The translations under genes were made by a program, and so were the position numbers. A DNA stretch of 64,000 bases from an uncultured Spirochaetota bacterium (GTDB lineage: Bacteria; Spirochaetota; Spirochaetia; SZUA-6; Fen-1364). Each line of letters starts with the position of its first letter. Position 1 is the stretch's first letter. Below, one piece after another: positions 1-45,495 of this stretch. The notes below the pieces were generated by a model. The model was not told the DNA's origin. It made no database searches and saw only the letters and a list, made by a program, of their open reading frames with translations. The stretch is taken from positions 288,001 through 352,000 of the forward strand of contig CAVTHO010000006.1 of assembly GCA_963734545.1 (NCBI GenBank). Direction: 5' to 3'.

Positions 1-2556
1 CGGACTCGCGCCTTCTGCAGGGCACGCCATGGGTTGCGCGGGCACCTTTTCTTCGCGAGCTTCCCTCCCGCATCCCTGCCCGGATCTGCGCCTCGGTCAC
101 TCTCTCCACGATGCATGGCTGTCCCCCCGGTGAGATCGAATCGATCTGCGCGTACCTGCTTCGGGAGAAGAAGCTGGACACGCTCGTGAAGCTCAACCCC
201 ACCCTGTTGGGGCACGAGCGCGCCAAAGAGATACTCTCCGGCCTGGGCTTCGGCTACGTGAGCCTGAACCCGGAAGGCTTTCGCAAGGACCTGCAGTACG
301 CCGACGCGGTCCCGATGCTGACCCGGCTTCTCGGCCTGGGCAGGCAGGAAGGCAGGCACTTTGGCGCCAAGCTTTCCAATACCCTTGCGGCGGCCAACAG
401 CAGGGGCGTGCTGCCGGGAGACGAGATGTACATGTCCGGCAGGGCGCTCTACCCGCTGACGATCACTCTCGCCGCGAGCCTTGCAGCCGATTTCAAGGGA
501 GCGCTGCCGCTCTCGTTTTCCGGCGGTGTGTCCGCCTGGAATATCGGCGAGGTGCTGGAGGCGGGCATACGGCCCATCACGCTTGCCACGGACCTGCTGA
601 AGCCCGGCGGATACGGAAGGCTGAAAGAGCTTGCGGAAACGGCGGAGAAACACGCGGCGGCATGGGGCACACGGCGCGTGGATGCCCGGGGGCTTGGACG
701 CGCAGCGGAAGCCGTGCGCGGCGCCCCGTCACGCTCAGAAAGGACTTCCGCGGCGCCGGCGAAGGTCCACGTCGAGGGACCGCTTCCCCTGTTCGATTGT
801 TTCGTCGCGCCGTGCATGCATGCCTGCCCGATCTGCCAGGATGTTCCCGAGTACGTGCACCTGGCCGGCGCAGGCAGGTTCGAGGAAGCATTCGAGGTCA
901 TCTACAGGCGCAACCCGCTCCCCTTCATGACAGGCTATCTCTGCGACCATCAGTGCACGCAGAACTGCACGCGCATGGACTGGGAAGGGTCTGTCCGGAT
1001 ACGGGAAGTCAAACGGGTCGCCGCGGAGAGAGGCTACGACGCCTATCGGTCCAGCGGCAGGCTGGCCGCGCGGAAGGCGGCGCCGAGGGGAGTGAAAGCA
1101 GCCGTCGTCGGCGCCGGTCCGGCGGGGCTGGCCGCCGCGTCTTTCCTGGCGCGCGAGGGCTTCGAGGCGCACGTGTTCGAGCGGGAGAGCGAGCCGGGAG
1201 GGATCGTGCGCTGGCTCCTGCCCGGGTTTCCGCCTGCCCGCCGCCTCTGTGGAGAAGGACGTGTCCCTGCTGACGGACCTGGGGGTCCGGTTCCACTTCG
1301 GCGTGAAGGAAAAGCCGCGCGTCGGGCAGCTGAATGCGGAAGGCTTCCGTTACGTGCTTGCCGGTATCGGCGCGGAAGCGGACAAGAGATCGGCATCGAG
1401 GGGGCGCGCGAGGCGTTCGCGTTCCTCCGCGCAGTTCAGGAAGGACCCGTCCTCCCTGCGTCTCGGACGTTCCGTCGTGGTCGTCGGGGCGGGAGACACC
1501 GCAATGGATGCGGCGCGCGCCGCAAAGCGCTGCAAGGGCGTGAAGGTCGTGCGGATCGTCTATCGCAGGTCGGAGCGCGAAATGCCTGCCTCCGCGGAAG
1601 AGTACGCCTCCGCGCGGGAGGAGGGGATCCTGTTTCATTTCCTGCGCGCGCCGGAGCGCTGGTCGGCGGAGGCCGGCCTCGTCTGCCGCGTGATGGAGCT
1701 GGGCCCTGAAGATCAGACCGGCCGCTCCCGTCCGGTGCCCACGGAAGCGCGCGAGACCCTGCCGGCCGACACCCTCATCACCGCGCTGGGCGCCGAGGTG
1801 GACAGCAGGGGGCTCGAGAGTCTCGGGCTGCCTCCCGACAAGGCCGCGATAGACGCGCGCACCCAGGAAACCGGAGTGCCCGGATTGTTTCTCATCGGGG
1901 ACGCGGCGGCCGGGGCAGAGACCATCGTAAAGGCGATTGCCTCGGCGCGAAGGGCGGTGGATGCAGTCTGCGCGCAGGAATCCGGGCGCACGGCACCCCC
2001 TCGCGCGCCGGAGAGCGCGGGCGCCGGCAGGGCGCCTGCCTGGGATGTGCCTGCGGAAGATACCACCCGGCTGCGCACCCTGCGTGACCGGCTGATACCG
2101 GTGTCTGCCGCGGGCGCCGATGATGACGAGGTCAGGGACACGGAATCGCGGCGCTGTCTCGGCTGCAGGGCGCTGTGTCTCAAGTGCGTCGAGGTCTGTC
2201 CGAACAGGGCCAACACGTTCATACGCGTGGAGGGCTTCAGCGACGAGGCGCAGATCGTTCACCTCGATGCGTTCTGCAACGAATGCGGGAACTGCGCCAC
2301 CTTCTGCCCGTGGGAGGGACGGCCATACAGGGACAAGCTCACCGTCTTCGAAAATGAAGCGGACTTCCGTGACAGCACCAATCCCGGCTTCTTCCTCCGA
2401 AGGGGCAGGGGCATGGTCCGGATGGACGGCCGGGTCCGGGACCTGCTGGTGGACGCGGCGGGAAACGTGACGGAAGGCATGGACAAGGGCTCCGCAAAAG
2501 CGGTGGTGAGCGCGATTGTGCGCGACTACCCCTACCTTCTCGGAGAACAGCAATGA
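1..2556 (+). CDS. ygfK: Putative selenate reductase subunit YgfK-like Fe-S flavoprotein (5' end outside window, frameshifted)
   Basis: ORFs 111-1709 and 1249-2556 join: KLNPTLLG, CFVAPCxxACPI, GAGPAG FAD motif, GAGDTAMDAAR, C-terminal CVEVCPNRAN and CNECGNC; overlaps ssnA start. Confidence 0.85.
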
Positions 2557-3875
2557 TCGTATTGAAAAATGCCACGCTCGTGCACCTGCACCCCGCCGAG
2601 GTGACTCCCGGCGTCGATGTCGTGATCGACGGAACAGAGATACGGACGGTGGGGCGGGCCGCCTCGGAAGCGTTGAAGGCGGAAAGGACCATCGACCTGG
2701 CGGGCCGCATCGTCATGCCGGGCCTCGTGTGCAGTCATGACCATTTCTACTCCGGTCTTTCCCGCGGCATCATGGCACGGATCGCGGCGAGCACCGACTT
2801 TGTTTCCACGCTGCAGAACCTCTGGTGGCGCCTGGACAAGGCGCTGGACGCCGACGCGCTGCAGTCCAGCGGCATGGTCTGCGCGATGGACGCGGTCAAG
2901 GCGGGCTGCACGGCCGTTATCGATCATCACGCATCCCCTTCCTTCATCACCGGCTCCCTGGAAATGCTGAAGGGATGCTTCGAGAAGGTGGGGCTCCGCG
3001 GGGTCCTCTGTTACGAGACCACGGACCGGAACGGTCCGGAAGGCTTGAAGCGGGGGGTGGAAGAGAACCGCAGCTTTGCCGGGCTGGTGGAGGAGGAGAA
3101 GAAAAGCCGGGGCGGGCAGCGGCTGGTGGAAGCGATGATCGGCGGACATGCCCCCTTCACACTTTCCAATGACGGTCTTGCGGCGCTTGCGGATGTCGTG
3201 TCGGCCACCGGACGCGGATTCCACGTGCACGCCGCGGAGGATGCGTTCGACGTTTCCTTTTCCCACGGCGCGTACGGCAAGGATCCTTTGCGCAGGCTGG
3301 ACGAGTTCGGCCTTCTCTCCGACAAGTCCCTGGTGGCGCACGGCCTGTACCTCACCGCCGCGGACCGGGAGATCCTCAACGTGCGCGGGGCATTTCTCGC
3401 CCACAACTGCCGCTCGAACATGAACAACCACGTCGGCTACAACGCCGAGCTGCCCCGGGTGAAGAACGTGGCGCTGGGCACCGACGGGATCGGCTCCGAC
3501 ATGCTCCTGGAGACCAAGTTCGCCTATTTCCGCCACCGTGACGCGGGAGGCCCTCTCACGCCGGGCGCCTTCATGCGTTTCCTCCAGAGCGGAAACGAGA
3601 TCCTGCATCGCTGCTTTGGTGAGAGCTTCGGCAGGGTGGAGGAGGGCTACAAGGCGGACCTCGTCATCCTGGACTACGACGCGCCGACCCCTCTCGTGCG
3701 CGAGAATGTCGCCGGTCATGCGATCTTCGGCATGGGAAGCAGGGACGTGGACACGGTGATCGTGAACGGCAGGATCATCATGGAGAGCAGGTCGTTCCGA
3801 TGGGACACGGCGCCCGTCTATGCGGCGGCCCAGGCAGCCGCGAGATCGCTCTGGCAGAAAATGGACCAGGCCTGA
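2553..3875 (+). CDS. ssnA: Putative aminohydrolase SsnA (amidohydrolase superfamily)
   Basis: SHDHFYSGLSRG metal motif, LWWRLD, DHHASP, HVHAAE, LGTDG; directly after ygfK. Confidence 0.88.
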   Translation: MIVLKNATLVHLHPAEVTPGVDVVIDGTEIRTVGRAASEALKAERTIDLAGRIVMPGLVCSHDHFYSGLSRGIMARIAASTDFVSTLQNLWWRLDKALDADALQSSGMVCAMDAVKAGCTAVIDHHASPSFITGSLEMLKGCFEKVGLRGVLCYETTDRNGPEGLKRGVEENRSFAGLVEEEKKSRGGQRLVEAMIGGHAPFTLSNDGLAALADVVSATGRGFHVHAAEDAFDVSFSHGAYGKDPLRRLDEFGLLSDKSLVAHGLYLTAADREILNVRGAFLAHNCRSNMNNHVGYNAELPRVKNVALGTDGIGSDMLLETKFAYFRHRDAGGPLTPGAFMRFLQSGNEILHRCFGESFGRVEEGYKADLVILDYDAPTPLVRENVAGHAIFGMGSRDVDTVIVNGRIIMESRSFRWDTAPVYAAAQAAARSLWQKMDQA

Positions 3876-3909
3876 TCACGCAGACCCCGTGTCCGCGCAG
3901 GCCGGGCTG

Positions 3910-3938
3910 TTGACAGACCCGCGCGTCTGGATCATCCT
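3910..3938 (+). promoter_or_regulatory. Putative sigma70 promoter for leader peptide/RNHCP gene
   Basis: TTGACA (3910-3915), 17-nt spacer, weak -10 CATCCT. Confidence 0.45.
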
Positions 3939-3971
3939 GTCGCAGCTTATTTCGAGAATTAGGAGGACGGA

Positions 3972-4037
3972 ATGTCAGCTCTTGCGAGCATTGTGGTGGA
4001 AAGGTCCTGCTGCGTTTTCCGGAGCTCGCGGAGGTAA
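3972..4037 (+). CDS. Putative 21-aa leader peptide MSALASIVVERSCCVFRSSRR
   Basis: AGGAGG at 3961-3966 before ATG; lies in a structured leader upstream of the RNHCP gene. Confidence 0.5.
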   Translation: MSALASIVVERSCCVFRSSRR

Positions 4038-4168
4038 TCGAACCGTTCCAGTGAGAGAATGAGAGCGGTCGGTTCCTTCGCGCAGTGAGCCGCGGTACCG
4101 CGTTCGCGCGGAACGCGTATTCGCGTATTCCGCGGCGGTTTGTATATCTCACGCGGAGGAATTGATCC

Positions 4169-4540
4169 TTGTCGAGATTCCAGAGCCCGGCCGCCCAGGC
4201 GGCCGACCAGCCTTTCCATTGCATCAATTGCAGCCAGCTCGTTCTGATCGCGTCCGCCGGGACGGACCAGAGAAATCATTGCCCCCACTGCCTGTGGAGC
4301 CTGCACGTCGACTTCCAGAATGGCGACAGGCGCTCCGCCTGCAGATCCCCCATGGAGCCCATCTCGGTGTGGGTGAAGCACAATGGCGAGTGGGCGGTGG
4401 TGCATCGCTGCAGGGAATGCGGCGCCCTGCGCGCAAACAGGATTGCGGGAGACGATAACGAGGTAATCCTCTTGTCCCTCGCTCTCAAGCCGCTTGCCCG
4501 GCCGGCGTTCCCCCTGGAGCGCCTGCGGCTGCCTACGTGA
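4169..4540 (+). CDS. RNHCP domain-containing protein
   Basis: FxCxNC...RNHCPHCLWSLHVD...GDR...C...HRCxxCG...NRIAGDDN; GGAGGA RBS. Confidence 0.9.
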   Translation: MSRFQSPAAQAADQPFHCINCSQLVLIASAGTDQRNHCPHCLWSLHVDFQNGDRRSACRSPMEPISVWVKHNGEWAVVHRCRECGALRANRIAGDDNEVILLSLALKPLARPAFPLERLRLPT

Positions 4541-4616
4541 ACTGTTCATTGCGGGCCCTCCCACAGGAGGGCTCGCCTTTTTCCGCCGGACAAATGAATG
4601 ACTTGTCCGGTTCGCG

Positions 4617-5261
4617 TCATTCGTTCTGCGGCGGTGGTGCCCTGCGGCGTGCCCTCGAGTCCAGCCTCTCGTCGCGCTGGCGGAATCGGAGCCACCTCTT
4701 CAGCCCTCTTTCGATCAGCATCATGACGTCGTCGGTGAGATCTTCCGTGTAGGGCCCGGGTATGTTGAGCGGAAGGGTCGTGAAGATCGCGATGAGCATC
4801 CTTTTCGGATTGCGGAAAAGGCTGGTGCGGAACACTCCTCTGCGCGTACCCTCTGCCAGGATCTCCTCAATGAGCTCTTCGATGCGCCCGAAGAGCGTGC
4901 TCCCGCTGCTCACCCTGTCCTCCAGCCCCGGATAGATGTACCGCCTCTCCCCGGTGTAGATGCCCCGCAGGATCTGGTTGCTGCGCAGGCTGAGGGTCGC
5001 ATAGCGAAAGAGCGCTTTCAGCCGGAAGAGGGGGGAGTGGAGGCTGTTCACGTGCTTTTCCATGTCGCGGATTCCGCGCTGCTCGATCGTGTCCAGGATG
5101 GCGGAGTAGAAGGCCTCCTTGCTGGGGAAGTAGGTATAGAAGCTGCCCATGCCGAGCCCCGCCGCATCCGTGATGTCCCTGATGCTGACATCGCGGTAGC
5201 CGTGCTGGGCAAAGAGCCGCTCGCCGATCCGGAGCAGGGTGTCCGTGCGGTTTCTTTCCAT
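4617..5261 (-). CDS. TetR/AcrR family transcriptional regulator
   Basis: N-terminal HTH LFAQHGY..VSIRDITDAAGLGMGSFYTYFPSKE. Confidence 0.9.
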   Translation of the reverse strand: MERNRTDTLLRIGERLFAQHGYRDVSIRDITDAAGLGMGSFYTYFPSKEAFYSAILDTIEQRGIRDMEKHVNSLHSPLFRLKALFRYATLSLRSNQILRGIYTGERRYIYPGLEDRVSSGSTLFGRIEELIEEILAEGTRRGVFRTSLFRNPKRMLIAIFTTLPLNIPGPYTEDLTDDVMMLIERGLKRWLRFRQRDERLDSRARRRAPPPQNE

Positions 5262-5439
5262 GAATCTCCCCTGGTGACGGACCGGATGCCGCGGTCAAAT
5301 ATCCGGCTTCTTCCCGTTTTCGACGGCCTCCGGCATGCGGCGGCGCGCCGGAGCCTCGTGAAACCCGCGTTTTTGGCACATCCGGCGCCGCGGGCGTTGA
5401 CACTACCCCGCGTGGAAAACAGTCTCGTGTGGGGAGAGT

Positions 5440-6765
5440 ATGAAAGCGCTGGAAAAAAGACAAGCAACCGAACCCCACTACGTGCTGGCGTGTCCCGTCT
5501 GCGGCGGGACGTACGAAGACTCTCCCGATGAGTTTCTTCTCTCCTGTCCCGCGCCGCATCCCCCGGCCCTGCTGCGCGCGGTCTACCGGGAAAAGAAGCT
5601 CAAGGCGCATCCCGAGCATTCAGGGGTCTTCCGGTTTTTCGACTGGCTCCCCATCAGGCGGCGGCTCCCCGGTGCCGCGGGCCCGGCCGTGTACCGCAGC
5701 ACCGGTCTGGGTCCGCTCCTGGGGCTGAACAACCTGTTCGTCGTATTCAACGGCTGGTGGCCCGAGAAGGGCGCCCGGATGGAAACCTGTACGTTCAAGG
5801 AGCTGGAGGCCCAGGCGGTGTGCGGCAGGATCATGGACGGCTGGGAGTCCGCCCTTGTCGTATCCTCCGCGGGCAACACGGCGCGCGCTTTCCACCACGC
5901 CTGCAGCCGCTACGACGTGCCGGCGCTGATCGTGGTTCCCCGCCGCGGCATGTCGATGCTCTGGGGCACCGGCGCGCGCCGCCCGGAATGTGCGCCTGGC
6001 GGTGATCGACGGGGGCGCCGACTACGCCGACGCCGTCGAGCTGGGCAACGGGATTGCCGGCACCGAGGGCTACTACTCGGAGGGCGGCGCGCGCAATGCG
6101 GCGCGGCGGGACGGCATGGGCACGACGGTGCTCTCCGCCGTGGAAGCTGCCGGAGTGATTCCCGATCACTACTTCCAGGCGGTCGGCAGCGGGACGGGCG
6201 CCATCGCGGCATGGGAGATGAACCTGAGGCTGCTGGAGGACGGACGTTTCGGCAGCAGGAAGATGAGGCTGCACCTTTCGCAGAACGCGCCCTTCACCCC
6301 GATGACGGATGCGTGGGAGGCAGGCTCCCGCACGCTTGCCGTCGAGCCGTCACCGAGGCGCGGGCCCGGTCCCACGCCATCCGCGCGCAGGTCCTGGGCA
6401 ACAGGAACCCGCCGTATTCCGTGACGGGCGGTCTCTATGACGCGCTTCGCGACACGGACGGCTGCATGTACCGGGTGACGAACGAGGAAGCGCGCAACGC
6501 GGGCCTGCTCTTCGAGGAGTGCGAAGGCAGCGATATCGATCCTGCCGCGGAAGTGGCCGTGGCGTCGCTGCTGGAGGCCGCGCGCGGGGGACGCATCCGG
6601 CCCCGGGACGCCGTTCTGCTCAACATCACGGGGGGCGGGCGGCGCAGGCTCCTTGCCTCGCGCAGAACGGCGGCGCTGCGGGAAGACGCCACATTCACGA
6701 TCGAGGAGCTGCGCACGGACGGCCCCGCGCGCGGCCTGCGGCTGCTCCGGGAGGCCCTCGCGTGA
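5440..6765 (+). CDS. Cysteate synthase (threonine-synthase-like PLP enzyme), frameshifted
   Basis: GWWPEKGA..TCTFKELEA (PLP Lys), SSAGNTARAF, EGGARNAARRDGMG, YFQAVGSGTG, LLNITGGG across ORFs 5440-6765 and 5990-6424. Confidence 0.85.
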   Translation: MKALEKRQATEPHYVLACPVCGGTYEDSPDEFLLSCPAPHPPALLRAVYREKKLKAHPEHSGVFRFFDWLPIRRRLPGAAGPAVYRSTGLGPLLGLNNLFVVFNGWWPEKGARMETCTFKELEAQAVCGRIMDGWESALVVSSAGNTARAFHHACSRYDVPALIVVPRRGMSMLWGTGARRPECAPGGDRRGRRLRRRRRAGQRDCRHRGLLLGGRRAQCGAAGRHGHDGALRRGSCRSDSRSLLPGGRQRDGRHRGMGDEPEAAGGRTFRQQEDEAAPFAERALHPDDGCVGGRLPHACRRAVTEARARSHAIRAQVLGNRNPPYSVTGGLYDALRDTDGCMYRVTNEEARNAGLLFEECEGSDIDPAAEVAVASLLEAARGGRIRPRDAVLLNITGGGRRRLLASRRTAALREDATFTIEELRTDGPARGLRLLREALA

Positions 6766-8007
6766 ACGATATTTTCGAGAAGACCCGGACCGACGGCGGC
6801 TACTTCGGCGATTTCCGCGCCGCCGGGGACATGTACTTCTCCCAGCCGATCCTCGACGGCGACCCGGGACCCCGGATGAAGTTCCAGGGCAAGGACGTCA
6901 TCGTCTGGGCCATCAACAACTATCTCGGCATCTCCGGGCAGGCCGGAGCTCACTGCCGCGGCCGCGGAGGCCGTAAAGCGCTACGGGCCCAGCGCCCCCA
7001 TGGGCTCGCGCCTGCTCACCGGCAACACGCGGGAGCACATCGAGCTGGAGAGGAAGCTGGCCGCGTTCTGCCGCAAGCCTGCCTCGATCGTGTTCAACTA
7101 CGGCTACCTCGGCGTGCTGGGCACCGTCTCGGCGCTGGTGGGCCCCGAGGACATCATCGTCATCGACTCTCTCTCCCACGCCTCCATGATCGACGCCACG
7201 CTGCTCGCCTCGGCCGGCCGGCGCTTTCGGCCGTACAAGCACAACAACATGGAGGACCTGGAGTCGCACCTGCAGGCCGCGGCAAAGGACCGCAAGGGCG
7301 GGATCCTCGTCGTGACCGAGGGCGTGTTCGGGATGAAGGGCAACTGCGCCCGGCTCGCCGATATCTGCGCGCTCAAGGAGCGCTACGGCGCGCGCCTGTT
7401 CGTGGACGACGCGCACGGGTTCGGCGTCATGGGCGCGGAGGGCCGCGGAACGGGTGAGCACTTCGGCGTGCAGGACAAGATCGATCTGTACTTCGGCACG
7501 TTCGCCAAGGCGTTTGCCGCAATCGGCGGGGTGACGGCGGGTGACTCCGACGTGGTGGAGTGGGTGCGCTACAATGCGCGGACAAACGTGTTTGCCAAGG
7601 CCCTGCCCATGGTGTACGTGAAGACCGTGGAAAAAGCGCTCTCCATCGTCGAAGGGGAACCGGAGCTGCGCAAAAAGATGTGGCACATCGCGCGCATGCT
7701 GCAATCAGGGCTGGTGGACCTGGGGTTCGACATCGGGGAACCCGAGTCCCCGATCACGCCGGTGTACGTGGTGGCGGGCGACGAGAAGACGGGCATGGCG
7801 CTCATGACCATGCTGCGCGAGGATTACGGCATATTCGTGTCCGGTGTGACATACCCGGTCGTGCCCCACGGCGTGTTTCTCTGCCGCATGATCCCCACCG
7901 CCGCGCATACCGAGGAAGACGTGCAGAAAACGCTCGACGCGTTCCGCCAGATGCGGGACCGGATGAAGCTGGATCTGTCGACAAAGCCGTCCCGGCAGAA
8001 CGGATAG
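6762..8007 (+). CDS. Alpha-oxoamine synthase family PLP acyltransferase, CapB/SulA (cysteate-fatty acyltransferase)-like, frameshifted
   Basis: GTG start overlaps upstream TGA; GPRMKFQGK..W..NNYLG, SHASMID, TEGVFGM, DDAHGFG, TFAKA, RMIPTAAHT. Confidence 0.75.
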
Positions 8008-8040
8008 GGGCGCCGCTCCTGCCGATCGGCGGTCCTGCCG

Positions 8041-8069
8041 TTGACACTGCCTGCCGATACGTGTACATT
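8041..8069 (+). promoter_or_regulatory. Putative sigma70 promoter with about 160-nt 5' UTR before the helicase
   Basis: TTGACA-17nt-TACATT. Confidence 0.55.
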
Positions 8070-8237
8070 CATCTCATATCAGAGCGCCGTGTCACGGTGC
8101 CTGAGGACATTCAACGAGTGAACAGGGCCTTACTAGTCCTCGCGGCGGCCTCACCGGCGATCCCACCGATTTCACACTCAAACAAGCCGGATATGTAACC
8201 GGACCTCTTCGTAAGAATTCCCGGTAGAAGGATCTCA

Positions 8238-9431
8238 ATGTATTTCTCAGATTTTTCCCTCGCAAAGGAGCTTCAGGCCGCTGCGCGGCGCATGGGCTTC
8301 GAACAGCCCACGCCCATCCAGGAGACGGCCATTCCGGCCGGCCTGTCGGGACGTGACGTCCTGGCCAGCGCGGAGACGGGCAGCGGCAAGACCGCCGCCT
8401 TCCTGCTTCCGATCATGCACAAGCTTCTGCCCATGCAGCGCGGCGCCACTCGCGCGCTCGTTGTCGCGCCCACGCGGGAGCTTGCCGCGCAGATCGCCGA
8501 TCACTTCCGCGAGCTTGCCGCCGGCACCCGCCTGACCTGCGCCGCCGTACACGGCGGAGTGGCAATGGGCGCGCAGGAGCGCGCGTTCCGCAAGGGCGTG
8601 GACATGGTCGTCGCCTGCCCCGGCAGGCTCCTGGACCACATGCGCAACAGCTACGTGGACCTGTCCGGCATCCAGTTCCTCGTCATCGACGAGGCTGACA
8701 GGATGCTCGACATGGGCTTCCTGCCGGACATCAAGCGCGTTCTCGCCGCGGTGCCCAGGAACAGGCAGACGTTCTTCTTCTCCGCCACGCTCCCCCCGGC
8801 CATCGTCACGCTGTCCCGTGAGCTGCTTCGAAGGACCCGGCCAGGCTGAACATCGACAGGAAGCCGGCGCCTGCCACCGGCATCACCCACTCGGTGTTTC
8901 CCGTGCCTTCAGACCGAAAGTCCAACCTGTTCCTCGAGCTGCTGGGCAAGGGGATCACGGGAAGCGTTCTCGTGTTCACCCGCACGAAGCACCGGGCGAA
9001 CAGGCTCGCCGATTTCCTGGACCAGCAACGGCGTGCGGTGCGCGCGGATCCACGGGAACCGCAGCCAGTCACAGCGCACCGCGGCGCTTGCCGGCTTCAA
9101 GCAGGGCAAGTTCCAGGTCCTCGTGGCCACGGACATCGCCGCGCGCGGCATCGACGTGGAGGCGCTGGGCTCGGTGGTGAACTTCGACGTTCCCCACCAG
9201 CCCGAGGACTACATCCACAGGGTCGGCCGCACGGCGCGGGCCCAGCTCACCGGTGACGCGCTGACCCTCGTTTCTCCCGAGGAGGAGAGGGATTTCGGCG
9301 CCATCGAGCGCGCGCTGGGCAGGCGCCTGCCCCGGCAGAAAGTGGAAGGTTTCGACTACACGTCGAAGCCGACGGTGACGCAGAGGCCTGCCCCCCGCCG
9401 GCAGAGGCAGGCGCCGCGCCGCGCGCGCTGA
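8238..9431 (+). CDS. DEAD-box RNA helicase (RhlE-like), frameshifted
   Basis: Q motif PTPIQ, AETGSGKT, PTRELA, DEAD, SAT, ARGID, HRVGRTAR. Confidence 0.92.
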
Positions 9432-9432
9432 T

Positions 9433-10377
9433 TCAGGTGTAGCGGATCCGGGGATTCAGCACCGCGTACAGCAGATCCGCCAGCAGGTTGGAGACGCTGA
9501 ACACGATGACGAGCAGGAGCGTGATTGCCTGCAGCAGGGGGATGTCCCTGCGCTGGATGGCGAACAGCAGGAGCCGGCCCAGGCCGGGGTAGCTGAAGAG
9601 TGACTCGGTCACGATCAGCCCGCCGATGAGCCAGCCGATCCCGATTGCGATCACCGTCACGGTGGGCAGGAGCGAGTTGCGGAGCACGTGCGTGAAGAGC
9701 ACGCGCGCCGGATGGAGTCCCTTCAGGTACGCGCTGCGCACGTAGTCCGTCGACAGGACCTCCGCGGTGGCGGACCGGGTCATGCGGGTGATATAGGCGA
9801 GACTCACCAGGGAGACGGTGATGCCCGGCAGGATGAGACGGGGAAGCGCTTCCAGGAGTCCCGCATCCGGGGTGATTGCCGAGCTCGCCGGGAGCCAGTT
9901 CAGCTTGAGGGCGAAAACCGCGATCAGCACGACCCCTGTGACGAACTCGGGAAGCCCGATGAACGCGAGGGACGTGATCGAGATGATCTGGTCGGCCACC
10001 TTGTTCCGGCGCAGCGCGGCGAGCAGGCCGAGCAGGATCCCCAGCGGCACGTACATGACGAACGCGACAAGGGCGAGCATGCCGGAGTTCCGCAGCCGGC
10101 CCGCCACGAGGTTCAGGACCGGCTCGCCCGTGCTCAACGACACGCCCCAGTCACCCTGCACGTAGTGCACCAGCCAGCTTCCGTATTGCATCGGCAGGGA
10201 CCGGTCGAGCCCGAGCTTTGCCCGCAATGCCTGGAGCGCCTCCGGGGTGGCAAACCGTCCGAGTATCGCTTTTGCCACGTCCCCCGGCAGGATCTGCGTC
10301 ACGATGAATATCAGCACGGATGAAATCAGCAGCGTCAGGAGGACAAGGCCGAGACGCCGCGCGATATAGGAGATCAT
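9433..10377 (-). CDS. Peptide/nickel ABC transporter permease (DppB-like)
   Basis: PGDVA..ILG, DYVRSAYLKGL, ESLFSYPGLG, LNPRIR. Confidence 0.9.
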   Translation of the reverse strand: MISYIARRLGLVLLTLLISSVLIFIVTQILPGDVAKAILGRFATPEALQALRAKLGLDRSLPMQYGSWLVHYVQGDWGVSLSTGEPVLNLVAGRLRNSGMLALVAFVMYVPLGILLGLLAALRRNKVADQIISITSLAFIGLPEFVTGVVLIAVFALKLNWLPASSAITPDAGLLEALPRLILPGITVSLVSLAYITRMTRSATAEVLSTDYVRSAYLKGLHPARVLFTHVLRNSLLPTVTVIAIGIGWLIGGLIVTESLFSYPGLGRLLLFAIQRRDIPLLQAITLLLVIVFSVSNLLADLLYAVLNPRIRYT

Positions 10378-12425
10378 CCTGGTTTCTCCGCCTGCAGCCG
10401 GGCGAGCTCGTCCAGGGGAATGTGGCAGTAGATCCGGTGGTTGTTCCTTCCCTCGCGCCAGGGCGGGGTCTGGGTCTCGCAGATTTTGCCCAGCTTGCGC
10501 GGGCATCGCGTGTGGAACCGGCAGCCCGCGGGCACGTTCAGCGCGCTCGGTACGCTGCCTTCCAGGCGAAGGGGACGCTGCACGACGTCAGGGTCAGCCA
10601 CGGGGATGGCCGAGAGAAGGGCCTCCGTGTACGGGTGATAGGGCGGCGCGAAGACGTCCGAGGCATCGCCCCACTCCATCAGGGCGCCGAGATACATGAC
10701 CGCGATCCAATGGGAAAGGTGCTGCACGGCGGCCAGGTCGTGGGAAATGAAAAGGTAGGAGACGCCGTTCTTCTCCTGGAGCTCGGTGAGGAGATTGACG
10801 AGGGAAGCCTGGACGGACACGTCGAGCGACGAAAGCGGCTCGTCCAGGAGTATCAGCTCGGGTTCAGCGGCAAACGCACGCGCGATAGCCACCCTTTGTT
10901 TCTCGCCCCCGCTCAGCTCCTCGGGAAGACGATGAGAATAGCTCTCTGACAGGTTGACCGCCCGGAGGAGAGCGAGGACCCTGCTCTTGAGCTCCCCGCG
11001 CGGAACAGAGGAAAGAAGCAGGAGGGGGCGCCGGATGGCCCGGCCCACCGTGTGGCGCGGATTCAGGGAAGCCTCGGGATTCTGAAAGACCATCTGCAGC
11101 TTTTTCAGGATTGCCCTGGGGCGCTGCGCCACGCCGGCTTCGAGGCTCACACCGCCCAGCGTGATCTCCCCGCTGCTCTTCGGCGCAAGCCCGATGACGG
11201 CGCGCAGCATCGTGGTCTTTCCGCACCCGCTTTCCCCCACGACGCCGAGCGTGTTTCCCTGCCTGACCCAGAGCGTCACGCCGTCCACGGCTTTCACCGT
11301 CTTCTGCGCGCCCCCCGGGACTCCGAAGAGCCTTTCCGCGGCTGGATAGCTTTTTTTCAGGTCGTGGATCCGGAGCACCTCGCGCCGTTCTTCAGGATGC
11401 GGCGGGATGACCTGGGCGGCCCGGGCGTATTCCGCCGCCGTGGGCAGCTCGTTCCAGCGGAGACACGCGCTGAAATGGCCGGGCTGCACCTCGACCAGCG
11501 GCGGCCGCCGCAGCGTGCATTCCTCGCGGACAAAGGCGCATCGCGGGGCAAAGACGCATCCCCGGGGAAGCTCGTCCAGCCGCGGGATCATGCCGGGTAT
11601 GCTGGTGAGCAGGCGCTTTCCCGCATCGCGCTCGAAGCGCGGGACGCAGCCCAGCAGGCTCAGCGTGTAGGGATGAAGGGGGCGCGTGTAGAGGGTGCGC
11701 ATCTCCGCCTGCTCGCAGAACTCCCCCGCGTACATGACACCCACCCGGTCGCAGAGCTTGGAGACCACGGCAAGGTCATGGGTGATGTACAGTATCGAGG
11801 AATCGAACTGCTTCTTGAGACGCTGAACGAGGTCGAGGACGACAGCCTGCGTGGTCACGTCCAGCGCGGTTGTCGGCTCGTCCAGGATGAGGAGCTCCGG
11901 CTCGGTGATCAGCGCCATGGCGATGACGGAGCGCTGCAGCATGCCGCCGGAAAGCTGGTGAGGGTAGCGGCGGAGGACAGACTCGGGATCAGGCATCGCC
12001 ACCCGGGCCAGCATGTCCCGTGCCTTCCTGCCGGCCTCCTCCCGTGACAGCCCGAGGTGCCGCCGGGCCACTTCCGCAAGCTGCGCGCCGATCCTCATCG
12101 AAGGATTGAGCGCCGTGGACGGGTTCTGGTAGACCATGCCGATGCGGCTTCCCCAGATCCTCCGCATCCGCCGCCGGGACAATCCGGTGAGCTGCTCGTC
12201 CCGCAGCCGGGAGAAGCCCGCGGTGACCCGTCCGTTGCCGCTCAGGTAGCCGATGGCCCCCATGGCAAGCGTGGTCTTTCCCGATCCCGATTCACCGACG
12301 AGCCCGAAGCATTCTTTCTCCGCAATGGTCAGGGTCGCATCCCGCACAGCCCCCAGGAGCCCGGATTCCGTTTCGTACCCGATCGAGAGTCCCTGGGTGT
12401 GAAAAACAGGCGGGCGATCTGCCAC
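10374..12425 (-). CDS. Fused DppD/DppF-type ABC ATP-binding protein (start approximate)
   Basis: Two Walker A motifs (GESGSGKT, GESGCGKT), LSGG signatures, HPYT and C-terminal Cys motifs. Confidence 0.9.
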   Translation of the reverse strand: MADRPPVFHTQGLSIGYETESGLLGAVRDATLTIAEKECFGLVGESGSGKTTLAMGAIGYLSGNGRVTAGFSRLRDEQLTGLSRRRMRRIWGSRIGMVYQNPSTALNPSMRIGAQLAEVARRHLGLSREEAGRKARDMLARVAMPDPESVLRRYPHQLSGGMLQRSVIAMALITEPELLILDEPTTALDVTTQAVVLDLVQRLKKQFDSSILYITHDLAVVSKLCDRVGVMYAGEFCEQAEMRTLYTRPLHPYTLSLLGCVPRFERDAGKRLLTSIPGMIPRLDELPRGCVFAPRCAFVREECTLRRPPLVEVQPGHFSACLRWNELPTAAEYARAAQVIPPHPEERREVLRIHDLKKSYPAAERLFGVPGGAQKTVKAVDGVTLWVRQGNTLGVVGESGCGKTTMLRAVIGLAPKSSGEITLGGVSLEAGVAQRPRAILKKLQMVFQNPEASLNPRHTVGRAIRRPLLLLSSVPRGELKSRVLALLRAVNLSESYSHRLPEELSGGEKQRVAIARAFAAEPELILLDEPLSSLDVSVQASLVNLLTELQEKNGVSYLFISHDLAAVQHLSHWIAVMYLGALMEWGDASDVFAPPYHPYTEALLSAIPVADPDVVQRPLRLEGSVPSALNVPAGCRFHTRCPRKLGKICETQTPPWREGRNNHRIYCHIPLDELARLQAEKPG

Positions 12426-12430
12426 GACCG

Positions 12431-13297
12431 CTACCTCCCCGTTCCCGGCTGCAGGACCTGGCGCAGCCCGTCCGTCATCAGGTTGGTGGCCACCACGAGC
12501 AGGGATATGGCCCCGGCAGGAAAGAGAAGGATCCACGGCGCGGTGGAGAAGTAGCTTCGGGCCTCGTTGATCTGCAGGCCCCAGTCCGGGGACGGCGGCT
12601 GGACCCCCAGGCCGAGGAAGCCGAGCGAGGCCACGAGAAAGATCGAATAGGAGAAACGCACCGACATTTCCACCAGGAGAGGCGCCATTGCATTGGGGAG
12701 TATCTCCCGGAAGAGTATGACCGAGTCCCGCTCACCCCGGATCCTGGCCGCCTCCACGAACTCCTTTGTCTTGAGATCCAGCACCATGCTGCGCGCCAGG
12801 CGCGCGAGCATGGGCACGTAGAGGACCGTCACCACGAGGAGCAGGTTCAACACGGACGGGCCCACCGTGGCGAGCAGGAGCAGCGCGAAGAGCAGGGGCG
12901 GGAAGGAGAGCAGGACGTCCAGGATCCTCATGAGCGCTTCATCCCAGAGCCGCCCGTAGTAGCCGGACAGCAGGCCGATGCTCACGCCGATCAGGGCGGC
13001 GAGCAGGGTCCCGGTGCCGCTCAGAAGGAAAATGGTGCGGCTTCCTGCCAGGACCCGGCTGAAGATATCCCTTCCGTACTGGTCCGTGCCGAAGAGGTGC
13101 GCGGCGCCCGGCGGCATGAGCCGGGAGGCGATGTCCTGGGCCTGGAACTGGTACGGGGCCACCAGGCTCCCGAAAATCGCCATGAGGAGAAAGAAGAGAA
13201 ACACGATTGTCCCGGCGAGCGCGGCGGGGTTCCGTCGGAGCCTCTCCCAGGAGCGGAGGAGCACGCGGACCCGGCGGGAGCTTTCAGAGACTTTCAT
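12431..13297 (-). CDS. Peptide/nickel ABC transporter permease (DppC-like)
   Basis: HLFGTDQYGRDIFSR, EFVEAAR, LGFLGLG..PDWG. Confidence 0.9.
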   Translation of the reverse strand: MKVSESSRRVRVLLRSWERLRRNPAALAGTIVFLFFLLMAIFGSLVAPYQFQAQDIASRLMPPGAAHLFGTDQYGRDIFSRVLAGSRTIFLLSGTGTLLAALIGVSIGLLSGYYGRLWDEALMRILDVLLSFPPLLFALLLLATVGPSVLNLLLVVTVLYVPMLARLARSMVLDLKTKEFVEAARIRGERDSVILFREILPNAMAPLLVEMSVRFSYSIFLVASLGFLGLGVQPPSPDWGLQINEARSYFSTAPWILLFPAGAISLLVVATNLMTDGLRQVLQPGTGR

Positions 13298-13351
13298 TGG
13301 AATACCCCCGACGGACCGGGGGTATTCCGATTCCACACGACCGGCAAACCG

Positions 13352-14878
13352 CTATTTCTTGAAGTATGCGTTCGTGAACCGGGTCCTGGCCCAGTCCGAT
13401 GCAAGGACGACGCCCTCGAGATTGGCGCTGAGCCCCGCCACCGCGTTCTCAAAATAGGTCACGATGATCGGCCCCCGGTCGATCAGGATCTGCTGCGCCT
13501 GCTTGTACAGCGCGGCGCGCTTTGCCTTGTTCATCTCCTTGTCCACCTTGGCAGTGAGCGCGTCGAACTCCGCATCCGACCAGTGGCTTTCGTTCCACTG
13601 ACTCTCGCTCGTGTAGGCGAGCTTGAAGTAGGTGACGGGCGTGGCCCGGGTGCCCCAGTCGGTGATGCCGAAATCGGCCTTCAGCCAGCTCTGGTCCCCT
13701 TCCCCGTAGTACACGTCGGAGGGAACGACCTGGATGTCGACATCCACGCCGATCTTCGCCATCTGTTCCTTCCACACCGTGGCCACGGGAACGACGTCAA
13801 GCGCGTTCTGCGCGGCCAGTGAGATCTTCAGCCCGTCCGGGTATCCGGCATCGGCAAGAAGCTTCTTCGCCTTTGCGAGGTCGAGCTTCGGGGGCTTGTT
13901 GAGGTAGTAGTCGGTGAACCCCGGCCCGACCGGCGTGAAGCCATTGCCCACGGACGCGAGGCCCGGGCGCACCGCGTTGATCAGCGCCTGGTGGTCCGTG
14001 GCCAGCTTCAGGGCCTGGCGCACGCGATTGTCCGCCGCGGGGTGGCCCGCATCCGAGCGCATGTGCAGGACCCAGTGCATATTGGAGTTGTTGGTGATGA
14101 TCTTCGTGCCGCTGTCCGCCTTCACGGCGTCCGCGAACTGCGTGCTCAAGCCGGGCACGTAGTTGAGCTGGTTCCCGCGCAGGGCTTCCACCTGTCCGCC
14201 CAGGTCAGGGGAGAAGATCATGTCGATCTCATCCAGGTAGGGCAGGGCGATTCCGTTCGCGTCCTTCTGCCTGAAGTAGGGGTTCTTTTTCAGCACGAGC
14301 CTGTCTTCGGGAGAATAGGAGGCGATCATGAACGCCCCGCTTCCCACCCTCTCTTTGCCGGGCTCCGTGCTGCCGCTGGGAATGATGCACGCATGATAGT
14401 CCCCCACGTCGCTGGCGAACTCGGGATTTGTGTCCGCAAGGGTGAACTGCACGCGTGTTGCGTCGAGGCCCTTGATATCCTGGATGCCCTTGAAGAGGCT
14501 TGCCGCGGGGCTGCCCACCTTGGGGTCCCGCAGACGGTTGAAGCTGAAGATCACGTCATCCACGGTGACAGGCTTCCCGTTGTTGAATCGGGCGCCGCTC
14601 TGCAGGGTGAAGATCCACACCTTGCCGTCGGCCGACTGCCACTTTGTGGCGAGGTCCGGCACCGGCCTGTTATTCGGATCGATGAATGTCAGGTGCTGGT
14701 ACACCTGCTCCAGGACCGTGATATCGGCGATGGACGTCGCGAAGTGCGGGTCCAGGTTGCCGATGGGCTGGCTTCCCACCTTCAGGATGCCCCCGGGCAC
14801 CGCGGGCGCGGCCCAGAGGGAGGTCACCGAGAAGAGGAGAACCGTGATCAAGAATCCGGGAAATACCTTCCGTGCCAT
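13352..14878 (-). CDS. ABC transporter substrate-binding protein, family 5
   Basis: Signal peptide, LDPH, PDLA..W, VTVDDVIFSF, RVRQAL. Confidence 0.9.
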   Translation of the reverse strand: MARKVFPGFLITVLLFSVTSLWAAPAVPGGILKVGSQPIGNLDPHFATSIADITVLEQVYQHLTFIDPNNRPVPDLATKWQSADGKVWIFTLQSGARFNNGKPVTVDDVIFSFNRLRDPKVGSPAASLFKGIQDIKGLDATRVQFTLADTNPEFASDVGDYHACIIPSGSTEPGKERVGSGAFMIASYSPEDRLVLKKNPYFRQKDANGIALPYLDEIDMIFSPDLGGQVEALRGNQLNYVPGLSTQFADAVKADSGTKIITNNSNMHWVLHMRSDAGHPAADNRVRQALKLATDHQALINAVRPGLASVGNGFTPVGPGFTDYYLNKPPKLDLAKAKKLLADAGYPDGLKISLAAQNALDVVPVATVWKEQMAKIGVDVDIQVVPSDVYYGEGDQSWLKADFGITDWGTRATPVTYFKLAYTSESQWNESHWSDAEFDALTAKVDKEMNKAKRAALYKQAQQILIDRGPIIVTYFENAVAGLSANLEGVVLASDWARTRFTNAYFKK

Positions 14879-17157: not shown

Positions 17158-18572
17158 AGCCCGAGCACCTTTTCCACTTCCCGGGCCATCTTGTCCGGGA
17201 GGGGCGTGCCCGGGTGGCTGTCCATGAGGGCCAGCGTCTTGTCCCTCACCCTGGCGTGAAGGTCTTTCGAGCCCGAGGATTGCCAGCCGTCAAAACGCTG
17301 CCGGTCGAAAAGCGTCGGCTGCCAGAACTCACGGAAATGATTCAGCGTGTGATCCTCGCCCAGAAAGTTTCCTCCCGGGCCCACGGCGTGCACGACATCC
17401 AGGGCAAGGGACTCCTCATCGATGGAGAACCCGCGGGCGAAATGCCTCATCATGCCGATCATGTCCGCCGTGAATACCATCATCTCCGGCGAGGTGATGA
17501 GCCCCGCCTCCAGGTATCCCACGTCATGGACGAGGTTCGTTCCGCCCAGCATGGCGGTCTGGACCGAAAAGACGGCGTCCGCCGCGGCCTGCTCGTCGAA
17601 CAGGATTCCGTCCGTGTGCCCCGCATAGCCCCAGCTCGGCAGGCCGTAGTACCGGCCCATGCACGCCACCGCGACCCGCGCAAGCTGGAACTCGGGAGCC
17701 CCGTACACGCTGATGGACGTTTTCATGTCCAGGTGGTGCAGACCGCTTCCATAGAGAAAGGGCGCGCCGGCGCGTTTCATCTGCTGAATGACCAGGCTGC
17801 TCAGCACTTCGGCGTTTCCCAGGGCGAGCCCTCCCGCGAGCGTCACGGGCGCCGTGCTGCCCATCATGGGGGCAGGTGAATGCACGACGGGCAGGCCCTG
17901 CTCCGCCATGTAGAGGAGCTTCTCGGTGGCGGTGCGGCTGTGCTGCAGCGGCGTGGTGGGCTCCGAGTACAGCAGCAGCGTGGGGTTGAGCCTCAGCTTC
18001 TCCATCCCGCCTGCCACCATGGCCGCGGCCTCCGCAATGGCGCGGCAGTCCGACTCGTCGTCGCACACGAAGACAACGGGTTTCACGCTGTTCTCTATGA
18101 GGGTGGCATACTGCCTGCGGTAGGTGCGGCCGGTGAAATCCCGCGGTATGCCCATGGACATGAGGAATGAAAGCTCGGGAAGAGCGTCGACCAGGCGCGC
18201 GCAGGCCTTCAGGTCCGCGAGGGTGAACGGCCGCCGCTCCCCGGTGCGGGGATCCAGGTAGTTGGGACAATCGGAACCGGGACCAAAGCTCGTCTCACCG
18301 GGGCGCAGCGCCACGGTGGCCCTGTCCGTGCCGCGCTCACAGAGGGCGATCTCGGAGGGGGCCTGCTTCAGGGCCCACTCGGCAAGTCCGGGTGGAATGC
18401 GCACCAGGTTGCCGTCGGTCACGGGGCAGCCGGAGTCGCGAAGCAGCGCAAGTGCTTCCTCGTGGTGCACCCGGACACCAGTCCGTCTCAAGATCTCGAG
18501 GGAGGCGTGGTGAATCATGTCGCACTGGGCCCGGTCCATGAGCTGAAGGGAGGGAATTGCGCGTGAAGTCAT
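17154..18572 (-). CDS. Trimethylamine methyltransferase (MttB) family protein, no pyrrolysine
   Basis: IHHASLEIL..TG, GSTAPVTLAG.LA..NAE.L, YGAPE, VGPGGNFL..DHTL..F; no in-frame TAG. Confidence 0.88.
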   Translation of the reverse strand: MTSRAIPSLQLMDRAQCDMIHHASLEILRRTGVRVHHEEALALLRDSGCPVTDGNLVRIPPGLAEWALKQAPSEIALCERGTDRATVALRPGETSFGPGSDCPNYLDPRTGERRPFTLADLKACARLVDALPELSFLMSMGIPRDFTGRTYRRQYATLIENSVKPVVFVCDDESDCRAIAEAAAMVAGGMEKLRLNPTLLLYSEPTTPLQHSRTATEKLLYMAEQGLPVVHSPAPMMGSTAPVTLAGGLALGNAEVLSSLVIQQMKRAGAPFLYGSGLHHLDMKTSISVYGAPEFQLARVAVACMGRYYGLPSWGYAGHTDGILFDEQAAADAVFSVQTAMLGGTNLVHDVGYLEAGLITSPEMMVFTADMIGMMRHFARGFSIDEESLALDVVHAVGPGGNFLGEDHTLNHFREFWQPTLFDRQRFDGWQSSGSKDLHARVRDKTLALMDSHPGTPLPDKMAREVEKVLGL

Positions 18573-18647
18573 GCCTTACGTATAGGCCGCGCGCCGCCCG
18601 CTGTCAAGAAAATGGCATGGGGGGTAGTGTCCTGACTTGAAAAGTCT

Positions 18648-19277
18648 TCAGGAATTCCTGTAGTCGATTGGATCCAGGCAATCATCATATTGCGCTCGGC
18701 TGATCTTGATCCAGTCAGTCCCGTCGATGCCTCTTGAGTTTTGCGTCCCCGGTCCGACCGGATATGCGCAAGCTGTCCCGATCCATTGGCCTTGCATCTT
18801 TGAAATGGTTTTCACTTCTTTGACAGCTTCGCTCAGATCTTGGTCTTGGCTAAATATAAGAGCAACATCATATGCATTGGCCAGAGCCAAGCGCACGATG
18901 TCCAGAGCAATTCGAACATCTACGCCCTTCTCTTGGCCAATGCGAGCCACCGTTGTACTGCCATCGGGCAAGAGGATTGTCCTTGGACGGTATCTAAGTG
19001 GGCGAGTGAATGAACGAATGCCCCGAGTGCCCATAACCGCAAGCTTCTTTGACCAAAACTTATGCCAATCAGGTTTTTCAACGGACCCAGGAATCCCGGT
19101 GTAGAAATAGATGCCTGATATCGTCCAGCCCTTTGCCTTGCACACTAGTTCCGTTAGCAGCTTTGGGTCATAGTTTGGGAAAGCGTACCCAAATGCTTCC
19201 TTTGCCTGATAGAAAAGGTTTTGGCCGTCAAAAAAGGCAACAACTCTTTTTATTGTTGGTTCGGTTGGCACTCTCAA
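18648..19277 (-). CDS. NYN domain (PIN-like) ribonuclease on an AT-rich insert
   Basis: FFDGQNL, QEKGVDVRIALD, FSQDQDL; GC clearly below flanks. Confidence 0.88.
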   Translation of the reverse strand: MRVPTEPTIKRVVAFFDGQNLFYQAKEAFGYAFPNYDPKLLTELVCKAKGWTISGIYFYTGIPGSVEKPDWHKFWSKKLAVMGTRGIRSFTRPLRYRPRTILLPDGSTTVARIGQEKGVDVRIALDIVRLALANAYDVALIFSQDQDLSEAVKEVKTISKMQGQWIGTACAYPVGPGTQNSRGIDGTDWIKISRAQYDDCLDPIDYRNS

Positions 19278-19285
19278 TACCTTTG

Positions 19286-19385
19286 AAAATAAAAAACCCC
19301 ACCGGAGGCCCGAAGGCTGATCCAGCGGGGATCAGATTCCTAACGAATCTATTGGTACTTTAGCTCCATAGAATCCCGGTGTCAA
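19286..19385 (-). promoter_or_regulatory. Promoter plus structured leader with terminator-like hairpin upstream of the NYN gene
   Basis: TTGACA (19385-19380)-17nt-TAAAGT; hairpin 19330-19297 with UUCG loop, then U-tract. Confidence 0.7.
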
Positions 19386-19582
19386 CAAAAAGATCGGAAA
19401 ATCTACGAAAAGAATCAATACTAGAAATATTTAATATCTCTATTATGAATCAGCCTTCCCAAACAGGCGTTCCCTTATAGTGCTCGTCAATATGAACGGA
19501 GCGAAGCCAGGGGCCGCGGGACGACCTACTTGACCGCCGCACGGCGAAGGTTATTTTAGTGTCTGGAAGAAGGAGAGCGAAA

Positions 19583-31955: not shown

Positions 31956-32038
31956 GCGGTCAGCTTCAGCCTCCTACGGTCCCCGCCTACCGTCCCTGGT
32001 AGGCGGGGCATCTTGGCGCGGCGCAAGGACGCGCCGCG
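31811..32038 (-). repeat. Inverted repeat A (LSR leader + first codons); partner at 36543-36769
   Basis: Near-identical reverse complement; hairpins CGCGGCGC..GCGCCGCG and CCCCGCCTACC..GGTAGGCGGGG. Confidence 0.92.
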
Positions 32039-32126
32039 CGCCCCCCAAATCCCAAAAACGCGCTCCATACTATCCCTTCAAAGACGGTTGTCAATTGAAG
32101 ACCCCGCACAAGAGCACTCCGATGGA

Positions 32127-36962: not shown

Positions 36963-36985
36963 GCTGTCAAACTATGGCTGACTAA

Positions 36986-45476: not shown

Positions 45477-45495
45477 CAGTCACCCCAGCCTAACG

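Follow-up and report, generated by a model that had tools for sequence, protein, structure and literature searches.

Are sulfonolipids made only by Bacteroidota, or can a spirochaete make them as well? The question is raised by two overlapping genes in the stretch of DNA analysed here (the window, 64,000 nucleotides, G000:C6:288001-352000, where G000 is the window's own genome). Reviews describe sulfonolipids as confined to the Bacteroidota. A 2024 gut survey placed 9632 of its 9633 prioritised genomes in that phylum (accessible part of PMC11525784), and a human-microbiota survey, which used loose cut-offs, makes no spirochaete claim in its accessible part (PMC11211663). No report of sulfonolipids or of a cysteate-acyltransferase pathway in spirochaetes was found in the open-access literature. 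From the nucleotide sequence it had been predicted that the two genes encode a cysteate synthase and a CapB/SulA-like acyltransferase in a spirochaete-like host. The present analysis indicates that the window, from a free-living spirochaete, is likely to hold an operon of two genes that covers the head-group half of a sulfonolipid pathway, and we infer capnine-type lipid production in this organism.

The first enzyme, a predicted threonine-synthase-fold protein dependent on pyridoxal phosphate (PLP), would convert O-phospho-L-serine and sulfite to L-cysteate, as its family membership suggests. The second, an alpha-oxoamine synthase of the CapB/SulA/CFAT kind (hereafter the acyltransferase), is presumably coupled to it translationally through the gene overlap. 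It would form the PLP-cysteate external aldimine, decarboxylate it and condense it with a long-chain acyl thioester to yield 3-ketocapnine, a role to which homology, signature residues and linkage point. A short-chain dehydrogenase (SDR) would then reduce 3-ketocapnine to capnine; its gene follows the pair in several relatives, not here, and the best candidate in G000 lies at C9:143660-144442.

Identity of the two enzymes

The divergent TetR gene, the cysteate synthase and the oxoamine synthase were all found where they had been predicted (Table 1), with matches to TetR_N, TIGR03844 and Aminotran_1_2, respectively. The GTG start of the acyltransferase (6762-6764) shares bases with the TGA stop of the synthase (6763-6765), so the predicted GTGA overlap also stands. 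The motifs GPRMKFQGK, TEGVFGMKG and CRMIPTAAHT, on which the prediction drew, are all present in translations of the acyltransferase, the first two in different frames.

Table 1. Coordinates of the enzyme pair and of other features in the window
Feature	Position	Strand, frame	Description
Cysteate synthase, whole	5440-6765	plus	TIGR03844-type, in three frame segments
Cysteate synthase segment 1	5440-5984	plus, frame 1	TIGR03844 profile positions 1-158, 162.8 bits
Cysteate synthase segment 2	5985-6346	plus, frame 2	TIGR03844 profile positions 162-277, 165.5 bits
Cysteate synthase segment 3	6347-6765	plus, frame 1	TIGR03844 profile positions 284-390, 123.1 bits
Alpha-oxoamine synthase (acyltransferase), whole	6762-8007	plus	GTG start 6762, stop 8005-8007
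Oxoamine synthase N-terminal segment	6762-6936	plus, frame 0	translation VNDIFEKTRTDGGYFG...GPRMKFQGK...NNYLGISG
Oxoamine synthase main segment	6937-8007	plus, frame 1	Aminotran_1_2 PF00155 2.6e-44; bears catalytic Lys and SulA-type Lys
TetR-family regulator	4617-5261	minus	214 amino acids, intact, TetR_N PF00440 3.2e-14
TetR-cysteate synthase spacer	5262-5439		presumed divergent promoters, role suggested by position only
DEAD-box helicase	DEAD domain 8238-8849; C-terminal part of Helicase_C 9033-9431		downstream of enzyme pair
Fe-S flavoprotein gene	3-1709 and 1249-2556		two overlapping open reading frames; Fer4_20, Pyr_redox_2, 4Fe-4S dicluster
Amidohydrolase	2553-3875		after Fe-S flavoprotein gene, upstream of TetR

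Each of the three pieces into which the synthase is split in the window falls below the curated cut-off of the NCBIfam profile TIGR03844 (324.9 bits), and the sum of their scores is only a rough guide. Intact orthologues from the same genus reach 453-485 bits, which supports the assignment to this type of cysteate synthase. Among 14 control genomes searched at 1e-40, only Methanosarcina acetivorans gave a match. The cysteate synthase of Methanosarcina, which serves the coenzyme M route, belongs to the same TIGR03844 family; unlike it, the window synthase is predicted to feed the adjacent acyltransferase, not sulfopyruvate and coenzyme M. In public pipelines the homologues of the synthase go under 'cysteate synthase [Spirochaetia bacterium]', and the name of a cultured organism appears on none of the 120 homologues listed. 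One acyltransferase homologue (P0088, 69% identity) is named Salinispira pacifica, where the synthase was not looked for.

The acyltransferase was compared with all solved structures, using the main segment from the window and P0003, an intact homologue of 414 amino acids that is 95% identical to this segment and served as full-length stand-in (the N-terminal segment aligns with its residues 1-59). The main segment scored 351.7 bits with the CapB/CFAT structure 28eh and 329.4 with SulA (7u7h), against 248.9 with SPT (3a2b), 206 with Kbl and at most 167.6 with BioF; the corresponding values for P0003 were 405.9 for 28eh, 377.2 for 7u7h and 264 for 3a2b. P0003 and 28eh align over residues 1-402 of both, with GPRMKFQGK opposite GPHMKFQGK and N52 conserved, and a hand count on the 28eh alignment of the main segment gave 166 identical residues in 343 (48%). 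The ranking behaves as expected in other proteins: an SPT-like control from a related metagenome-assembled genome (MAG; L102) ranks SPT first (461 vs 267 bits), and the CFATs rank first for a family member titled Bacteroidota (L048; 391.5 and 369.1 vs 247.7 bits) and for the deepest member of the family (L074; 336.1 and 316.9 vs 224 bits).

Profile searches argue in the same direction. The main segment lies below the NCBIfam equivalog cut-offs for Kbl (300 vs 460 bits), SPT (297.9 vs 640) and BioF (287 vs 426), and P0003 below those for Kbl (326.8 vs 460), BioF (310.2 vs 426.45), SPT and ALAS; across the two proteins the SPT models score 297.9-312.4 bits against their cut-off of 640. Since G000 bears its own Kbl above cut-off (519.5 vs 460 bits) and a BioF-like protein, besides a further unassigned paralogue, the enzyme of the pair is, as judged from this gene complement, not the housekeeping Kbl or BioF.

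The residues of the active site are largely those of a CFAT. The lysine of TFAKA aligns with the Schiff-base lysine K250 of 28eh, as in a fold-type I enzyme, and that of NVFAKALP with K280 of CapB, which is Lys281 of SulA. According to the accessible part of Radka et al. (PMC9304779), SulA and Spt have active sites that diverge at Lys281, with Ala in this place in Spt, and this Lys may distinguish the two. All 30 family rows of our alignment carry K280, and all seven SPT-like rows have A instead. The residues that make up the pocket in the complex of CapB with cysteate were taken from the accessible part of Pang et al. (PMC13692747), who give m/z 364.0 for the product formed with the palmitoyl group. 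In CapB numbering the window carries Y113, G114, Y115, H139, E187, D216, H219, F245, T247, A249, K250, F278, K280 and R375; among the residues listed in that source, N52 and those from G114 to K280 in this series are shared by CapB with the window enzyme and P0003. At Y113, E187, F245, A249 and K280 the window matches P0249, a proxy for CapB/SulA, while the seven SPT-like rows have T113, D187, M245 (T in one row), S249 and A280.

P0249 is a 50%-cluster representative from a P0003 search of 1.84 billion cluster representatives, and scores 540.9 bits to 7u7h and 519.2 to 28eh. It anchored a tree of 62 rows (LG+G4, ultrafast bootstrap/SH-aLRT support) made up of 30 family rows, 20 cluster representatives, NCBIfam-labelled paralogues (SPT-like, Kbl and BioF-like) of G000 and of the MAGs that supplied the family, and E. 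coli BioF and Kbl; 29 of the 80 related loci described below were kept, one per subclade. The window family (32 rows) was supported at 99/99, and it groups with P0249 and its relatives in a clade of 39 rows (100/97). Outside this clade stood the SPT-like (99/96) and Kbl (99/98) groups, and the BioF rows were apart too. An earlier mixture-model tree of 99 rows, built without the CFAT anchor, had likewise separated a family of 81 rows (100 SH-aLRT) from the SPT-like, Kbl and BioF proteins. The 62-row phylogeny places the window family next to the characterised CFATs as a subfamily in its own right, rather than within their group. Structure ranking, signature lysine and tree together bear out the predicted likeness to CapB/SulA rather than BioF or Kbl, and support an oxoamine synthase of the CapB/SulA/CFAT kind over BioF, Kbl or SPT.

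Three metagenome representatives of 1049-1127 amino acids (P0243, P0244 and P0246) carry an AMP-binding, fatty-acyl-AMP-ligase-like domain and a phosphopantetheine carrier followed by a C-terminal CFAT-like domain. All three keep the Lys280 signature, and P0243 is 60% identical to P0003. Such fusions suggest acyl donors bound to acyl carrier protein (ACP).

The closest known system is that of Alistipes finegoldii, which likewise has a TIGR03844-type synthase and a PLP-dependent oxoamine synthase with the Lys281 equivalent (SulA, 7u7h; 329-377 bits with the window segment and P0003). Alistipes and Odoribacter use a homologue of the archaeal-type cysteate synthase rather than CapA, and Capnocytophaga makes cysteate via CapA, an enzyme with no more than a distant relationship to the TIGR03844 type (both from the accessible part of PMC10191378). 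The window differs from A. finegoldii in that its host belongs to the Spirochaetota, not the Bacteroidota, that the two genes overlap in one operon and that the acyltransferase falls in a separate subfamily. Capnocytophaga ochracea CapB/CFAT (28eh, 28fa) is the best solved relative of the acyltransferase itself, and differs from the window by F113 (Y in the window), A82 and C141 (both S) and M277 (V). The SPT of Sphingobacterium multivorum (3a2b) has the same fold and condensation chemistry, with the catalytic Lys, His, Asp and Arg conserved, but scores 100-140 bits below the CFATs and departs from the window at positions 113, 187, 245, 249 and 280.

Host, distribution and genetic context

The G000 assembly (5.14 Mb, 10 contigs, 89% complete, 4.9% contaminated) contains four FlaA matches, against none in the 14 control genomes, and the MAGs that share synteny with it bear Spirochaetia or Spirochaetota titles. 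On the strength of these two observations G000 is, as far as its genes tell, a spirochaete and not a member of the Bacteroidota, so that the predicted host has held up.

The best 80 loci were taken from 584 relatives and are mostly titled Spirochaetia or Spirochaetota MAGs. The remaining titles include Aminicenantes, WOR-3, Stahlbacteria, Lentisphaeria, Chitinophagales, 'Cytophagia', Bacillota and 'Eubacteriales'; submitter titles were inconsistent for near-identical proteins and were not relied upon. Eight of the loci (L034, L035, L040, L041, L046, L047, L051 and L079) have close acyltransferases, with branch lengths of 0.03-0.14, and are titled 'Aminicenantes' or 'Eubacteriales'. Because closely related acyltransferases carry differing titles, some of these titles are probably wrong.

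The synthase lies directly upstream of the acyltransferase in 51 of the 80 loci and is not there in 24, the other five being too short to tell. Co-occurrence was scored in 60 relatives together with G000: the acyltransferase is present in 36 of these genomes and a TIGR03844 enzyme in 29. Both genes occur in 28, the acyltransferase alone in eight, a synthase fragment alone in one and neither in 24. Within the genus, 17 of 20 other species carry both genes. An even sample of the phylum gave the acyltransferase in 24 of 301 genomes at E <=1e-90. In one family of that sample (f16), 16 of 17 genomes carry the acyltransferase, with identities of 57-62%.

Clustering of neighbouring open reading frames in the 80 loci revealed genes of sulfate activation and reduction near the pair, namely cysH of the PAPS (3'-phosphoadenylylsulfate)-reductase type at 13 loci, a fusion of cysN with APS (adenylylsulfate) kinase (cysNC) at 13 and cysD at eight. 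In nine deep-branching spirochaete loci (L055, L056, L066, L069, L073, L075, L076, L078 and L080) they form clusters of the order cysD-cysNC-synthase-acyltransferase(-cysH), with cysH in six of the nine; such clusters would take sulfate through to the head group of the lipid. A gene for an SDR comes directly after the pair in 18 of the 80 loci (tblastn), including seven of the 11 closest (L003, L005, L007, L008, L009, L015 and L022). Insofar as neighbourhood reflects function, these cysD, cysNC, cysH and SDR neighbours connect the synthase with sulfite and the pair with ketoreduction.

Beside the pair in 33 of the 80 loci lies a gene for a two-domain glyoxalase/VOC-family protein of about 354 amino acids that bears no NCBIfam name (e.g. 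L067:6535-7596). G000 has an orthologue (46-61% identity) that is not linked to the pair (C3:166111-167166). In 17 of the 80 loci a homologous TetR gene precedes the pair in divergent orientation, and the TetR of the window may control the two enzymes. It passes no NCBIfam equivalog cut-off, and a search for an operator in 5230-5450 gave no inverted-repeat pairs. The prediction that no reductase adjoins the pair agrees with its neighbours in the window: a helicase gene lies 3' of it, and the genes upstream of TetR encode the amidohydrolase and the Fe-S flavoprotein. The helicase, not an SDR, also follows the pair in G307 and G319, two genomes of the same genus.

Alternative products and the state of the genes

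Several observations weigh against a sulfonolipid operon. All functions are predicted from the genes. The window family is a distinct subfamily, with about 48% identity to CapB; the direct sister relation of the two subgroups in the 39-row clade is weak (88/45), and the anchor was the proxy P0249 and not the characterised CapB/SulA sequences themselves. The window departs from CapB by A82 to S, C141 to S and M277 to V, and S82 and S141 are the residues of the SPT-like rows. Over the CapB pocket set the window is CFAT-like in its aromatic residue at 113 and in E187, F245 and A249, is SPT-like in S82 and S141, and has V277. Eight of the 36 genomes with the acyltransferase carry no TIGR03844 enzyme. 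No reductase is linked to the pair in G000, and the best homologue of the pair-linked SDRs, the unlinked gene on C9 (209-256 bits, vs 115-127 for the next SDR), is only 47-52% identical and lies among unrelated genes (DUF819 protein, class-III aminotransferase, glycosyltransferase, methyltransferase), which lend no lipid-specific support; it may be a paralogue. Nor is a source of sulfite evident in G000: PF01507 (PAPS reductase), PF01747 (ATP-sulfurylase) and PF01077 (NIR_SIR, sulfite reductase) gave no match in this 89% complete genome. For cultured Oceanispirochaeta the main text of PMC11129491 lists no capnines, and the pair was not looked for in those genomes. Lastly, both genes are frame-broken in the window as given, the acyltransferase not being one uninterrupted coding sequence, and at one break a contig of one metagenome run (X1, depth 2.78 at 6346) lacks the extra C found in those of two others.

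The best surviving alternative accepts cysteate synthesis by the pair, and its condensation with an acyl thioester, and holds that the product is no membrane sulfonolipid. It could instead be a sulfonated aminoketone of short chain length, or a signal, or could serve secondary metabolism as a building block. The separate position of the window family from the characterised enzymes would suit such a product, as would the glyoxalase/VOC protein so often found beside the pair and the fact that neither an N-acyltransferase nor a linked reductase was found in G000. Fusions of fatty-acyl-AMP ligase and ACP, moreover, are also typical of natural-product loading modules. We nevertheless regard this alternative as unlikely, since the acyl-side and pocket residues match CFAT, the SDR that follows the pair in 18 loci shares its subtype with the ketosphinganine-type reductases, and retention of the pair in 17 of 20 species fits a housekeeping lipid better than a sporadic metabolite.

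The frame breaks, which the original prediction had missed, lie at about 5984, 6347 and 6935: the synthase is read in frame 1 until about 5984, in frame 2 until about 6346 and then in frame 1 again, and the acyltransferase in frame 0 until about 6935 and in frame 1 thereafter. The window was compared with Logan contigs from four wetland-metagenome runs (X1-X4; at least 92% likeness, uneven coverage) and by blastn with G307 (86-89% identity) and G319 (about 90%). Contigs of all four runs are one base short at 5982 or 5985 (window +1), those of X2 and X4 have an extra C behind 6346 (window -1), and X4, the sole run covering 6934, is one base short there (window +1). In the spacer, contigs of three runs leave out a base at 5431, the window having an extra one at about 5431-5434. 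The two genomes agree, with the window showing +1 at about 5434, +1 at 5984/5986, -1 at 6347 and +1 at 6938/6935; G307 lacks the bases at 5984 and 6938, and G319 those at 5986 and 6935. Of 51 related loci, 50 have an unbroken frame for the synthase, and the acyltransferase is free of internal stops in 35 of 36 matches in relatives, the copy of G000 itself not being counted (36 genomes, one with two copies).

Similar private indels occur outside the pair. Relative to G307 and G319, the helicase has +2 at about 8826-8831 and +1 at 9025, which put the stretch between its two domains out of frame and leave the domains in the same frame, and the Fe-S flavoprotein gene has six single-base indels between 730 and 1430. 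Positions 1-9500 of the window hold about 11 such small indels, spread over unrelated genes, and the comparison of 9401-14000 with G307 showed only three (2, 3 and 3 bases). Genes elsewhere in G000 are split likewise relative to their relatives (C9:210842-211757 and C6:403521-404898), and one of the FlaA genes is in two pieces. A paralogue of the oxoamine synthase (G000:C7:898111-899113) is in five frame segments within 1 kb and represents either a cluster of errors or a true pseudogene.

Because unrelated neighbouring genes bear similar private indels, the three breaks are very probably indel errors of the assembly, and the organism's own genes are therefore probably intact. That the breaks are real, and that the pair is decaying and no longer functional in this strain, seems quite unlikely. 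Three breaks within 2.6 kb, the X1 cover at 6346 and the origin of the compared reads (none identified as coming from the source sample) would speak for decay. Against this stand the indels in the helicase, the Fe-S flavoprotein gene and the spacer, the split genes on other contigs and the other sources examined that do not have the indels; indels aside, neither stops nor deletions interrupt the sequence, and an intact homologue shares 95% identity with the protein. Programmed frameshifting was rejected, the three sites being separate and absent from relatives, and unrelated neighbouring genes being affected as well.

It is very unlikely that the acyltransferase is a serine- or glycine-using enzyme of the SPT or Kbl type and that the cysteate synthase serves sulfopyruvate, taurine-like solutes or sulfite detoxification. 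Public pipelines do name the acyltransferase homologues 'glycine C-acetyltransferase', positions 82 and 141 are as in the SPT-like rows, and eight relatives have the acyltransferase without a TIGR03844 enzyme; yet the Kbl, BioF and SPT models all score below cut-off, G000 has a separate true Kbl, and Lys280 replaces the Ala of the SPT-like rows. That the genes share stop and start bases, and adjoin in 51 of 80 loci, links the two enzymes, and the synthase occurs without the acyltransferase in one relative only, as a fragment.

Neighbouring genes and meaning of the finding

The genes upstream of TetR, an Fe-S flavoprotein gene that is a single open reading frame of about 1030 amino acids in relatives and the amidohydrolase that follows it, we take to resemble dihydropyrimidine dehydrogenase and dihydropyrimidinase. 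The window has a G+C content of about 64%, and no tRNA genes or Rfam matches were found in it. Dips in G+C to 0.555-0.58, compared with about 0.64 elsewhere, occur at 18000-20000, 32000-38000 and 42000-46000.

The indels in this region carry a practical lesson, in that apparent pseudogenes in long-contig MAGs should be compared with relatives before gene decay is called. Should the acyltransferase assignment be true, the public 'glycine C-acetyltransferase' annotations of these enzymes would need correcting. Were the pathway to operate in this genus, in which no sulfate-assimilation genes were detected, it would need external sulfite or organosulfonates.

On the evidence of its genes, the locus represents a new host phylum and a sister subfamily for a known type of pathway. 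A wider proposition, which we hold to be evenly balanced, is that capnine-type sulfonolipids are not a speciality of the Bacteroidota: a distinct sister subfamily of acyltransferases, usually joined to an archaeal-type cysteate synthase and sometimes accompanied by genes of sulfate activation, by a reductase or by a fatty-acyl-AMP ligase fused with ACP, would give free-living Spirochaetota (17 of 20 species of one wetland genus) sulfonated sphingoid-like membrane lipids, and maybe also the MAGs titled WOR-3, Lentisphaeria, Aminicenantes and still other groups. Sulfonolipids have roles in gliding motility and in signalling to hosts and choanoflagellates, and are used as markers of Bacteroidota. 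If spirochaetes or other uncultured lineages make them, environmental capnine signals and inferences based on sulfonolipids would need to be read again.

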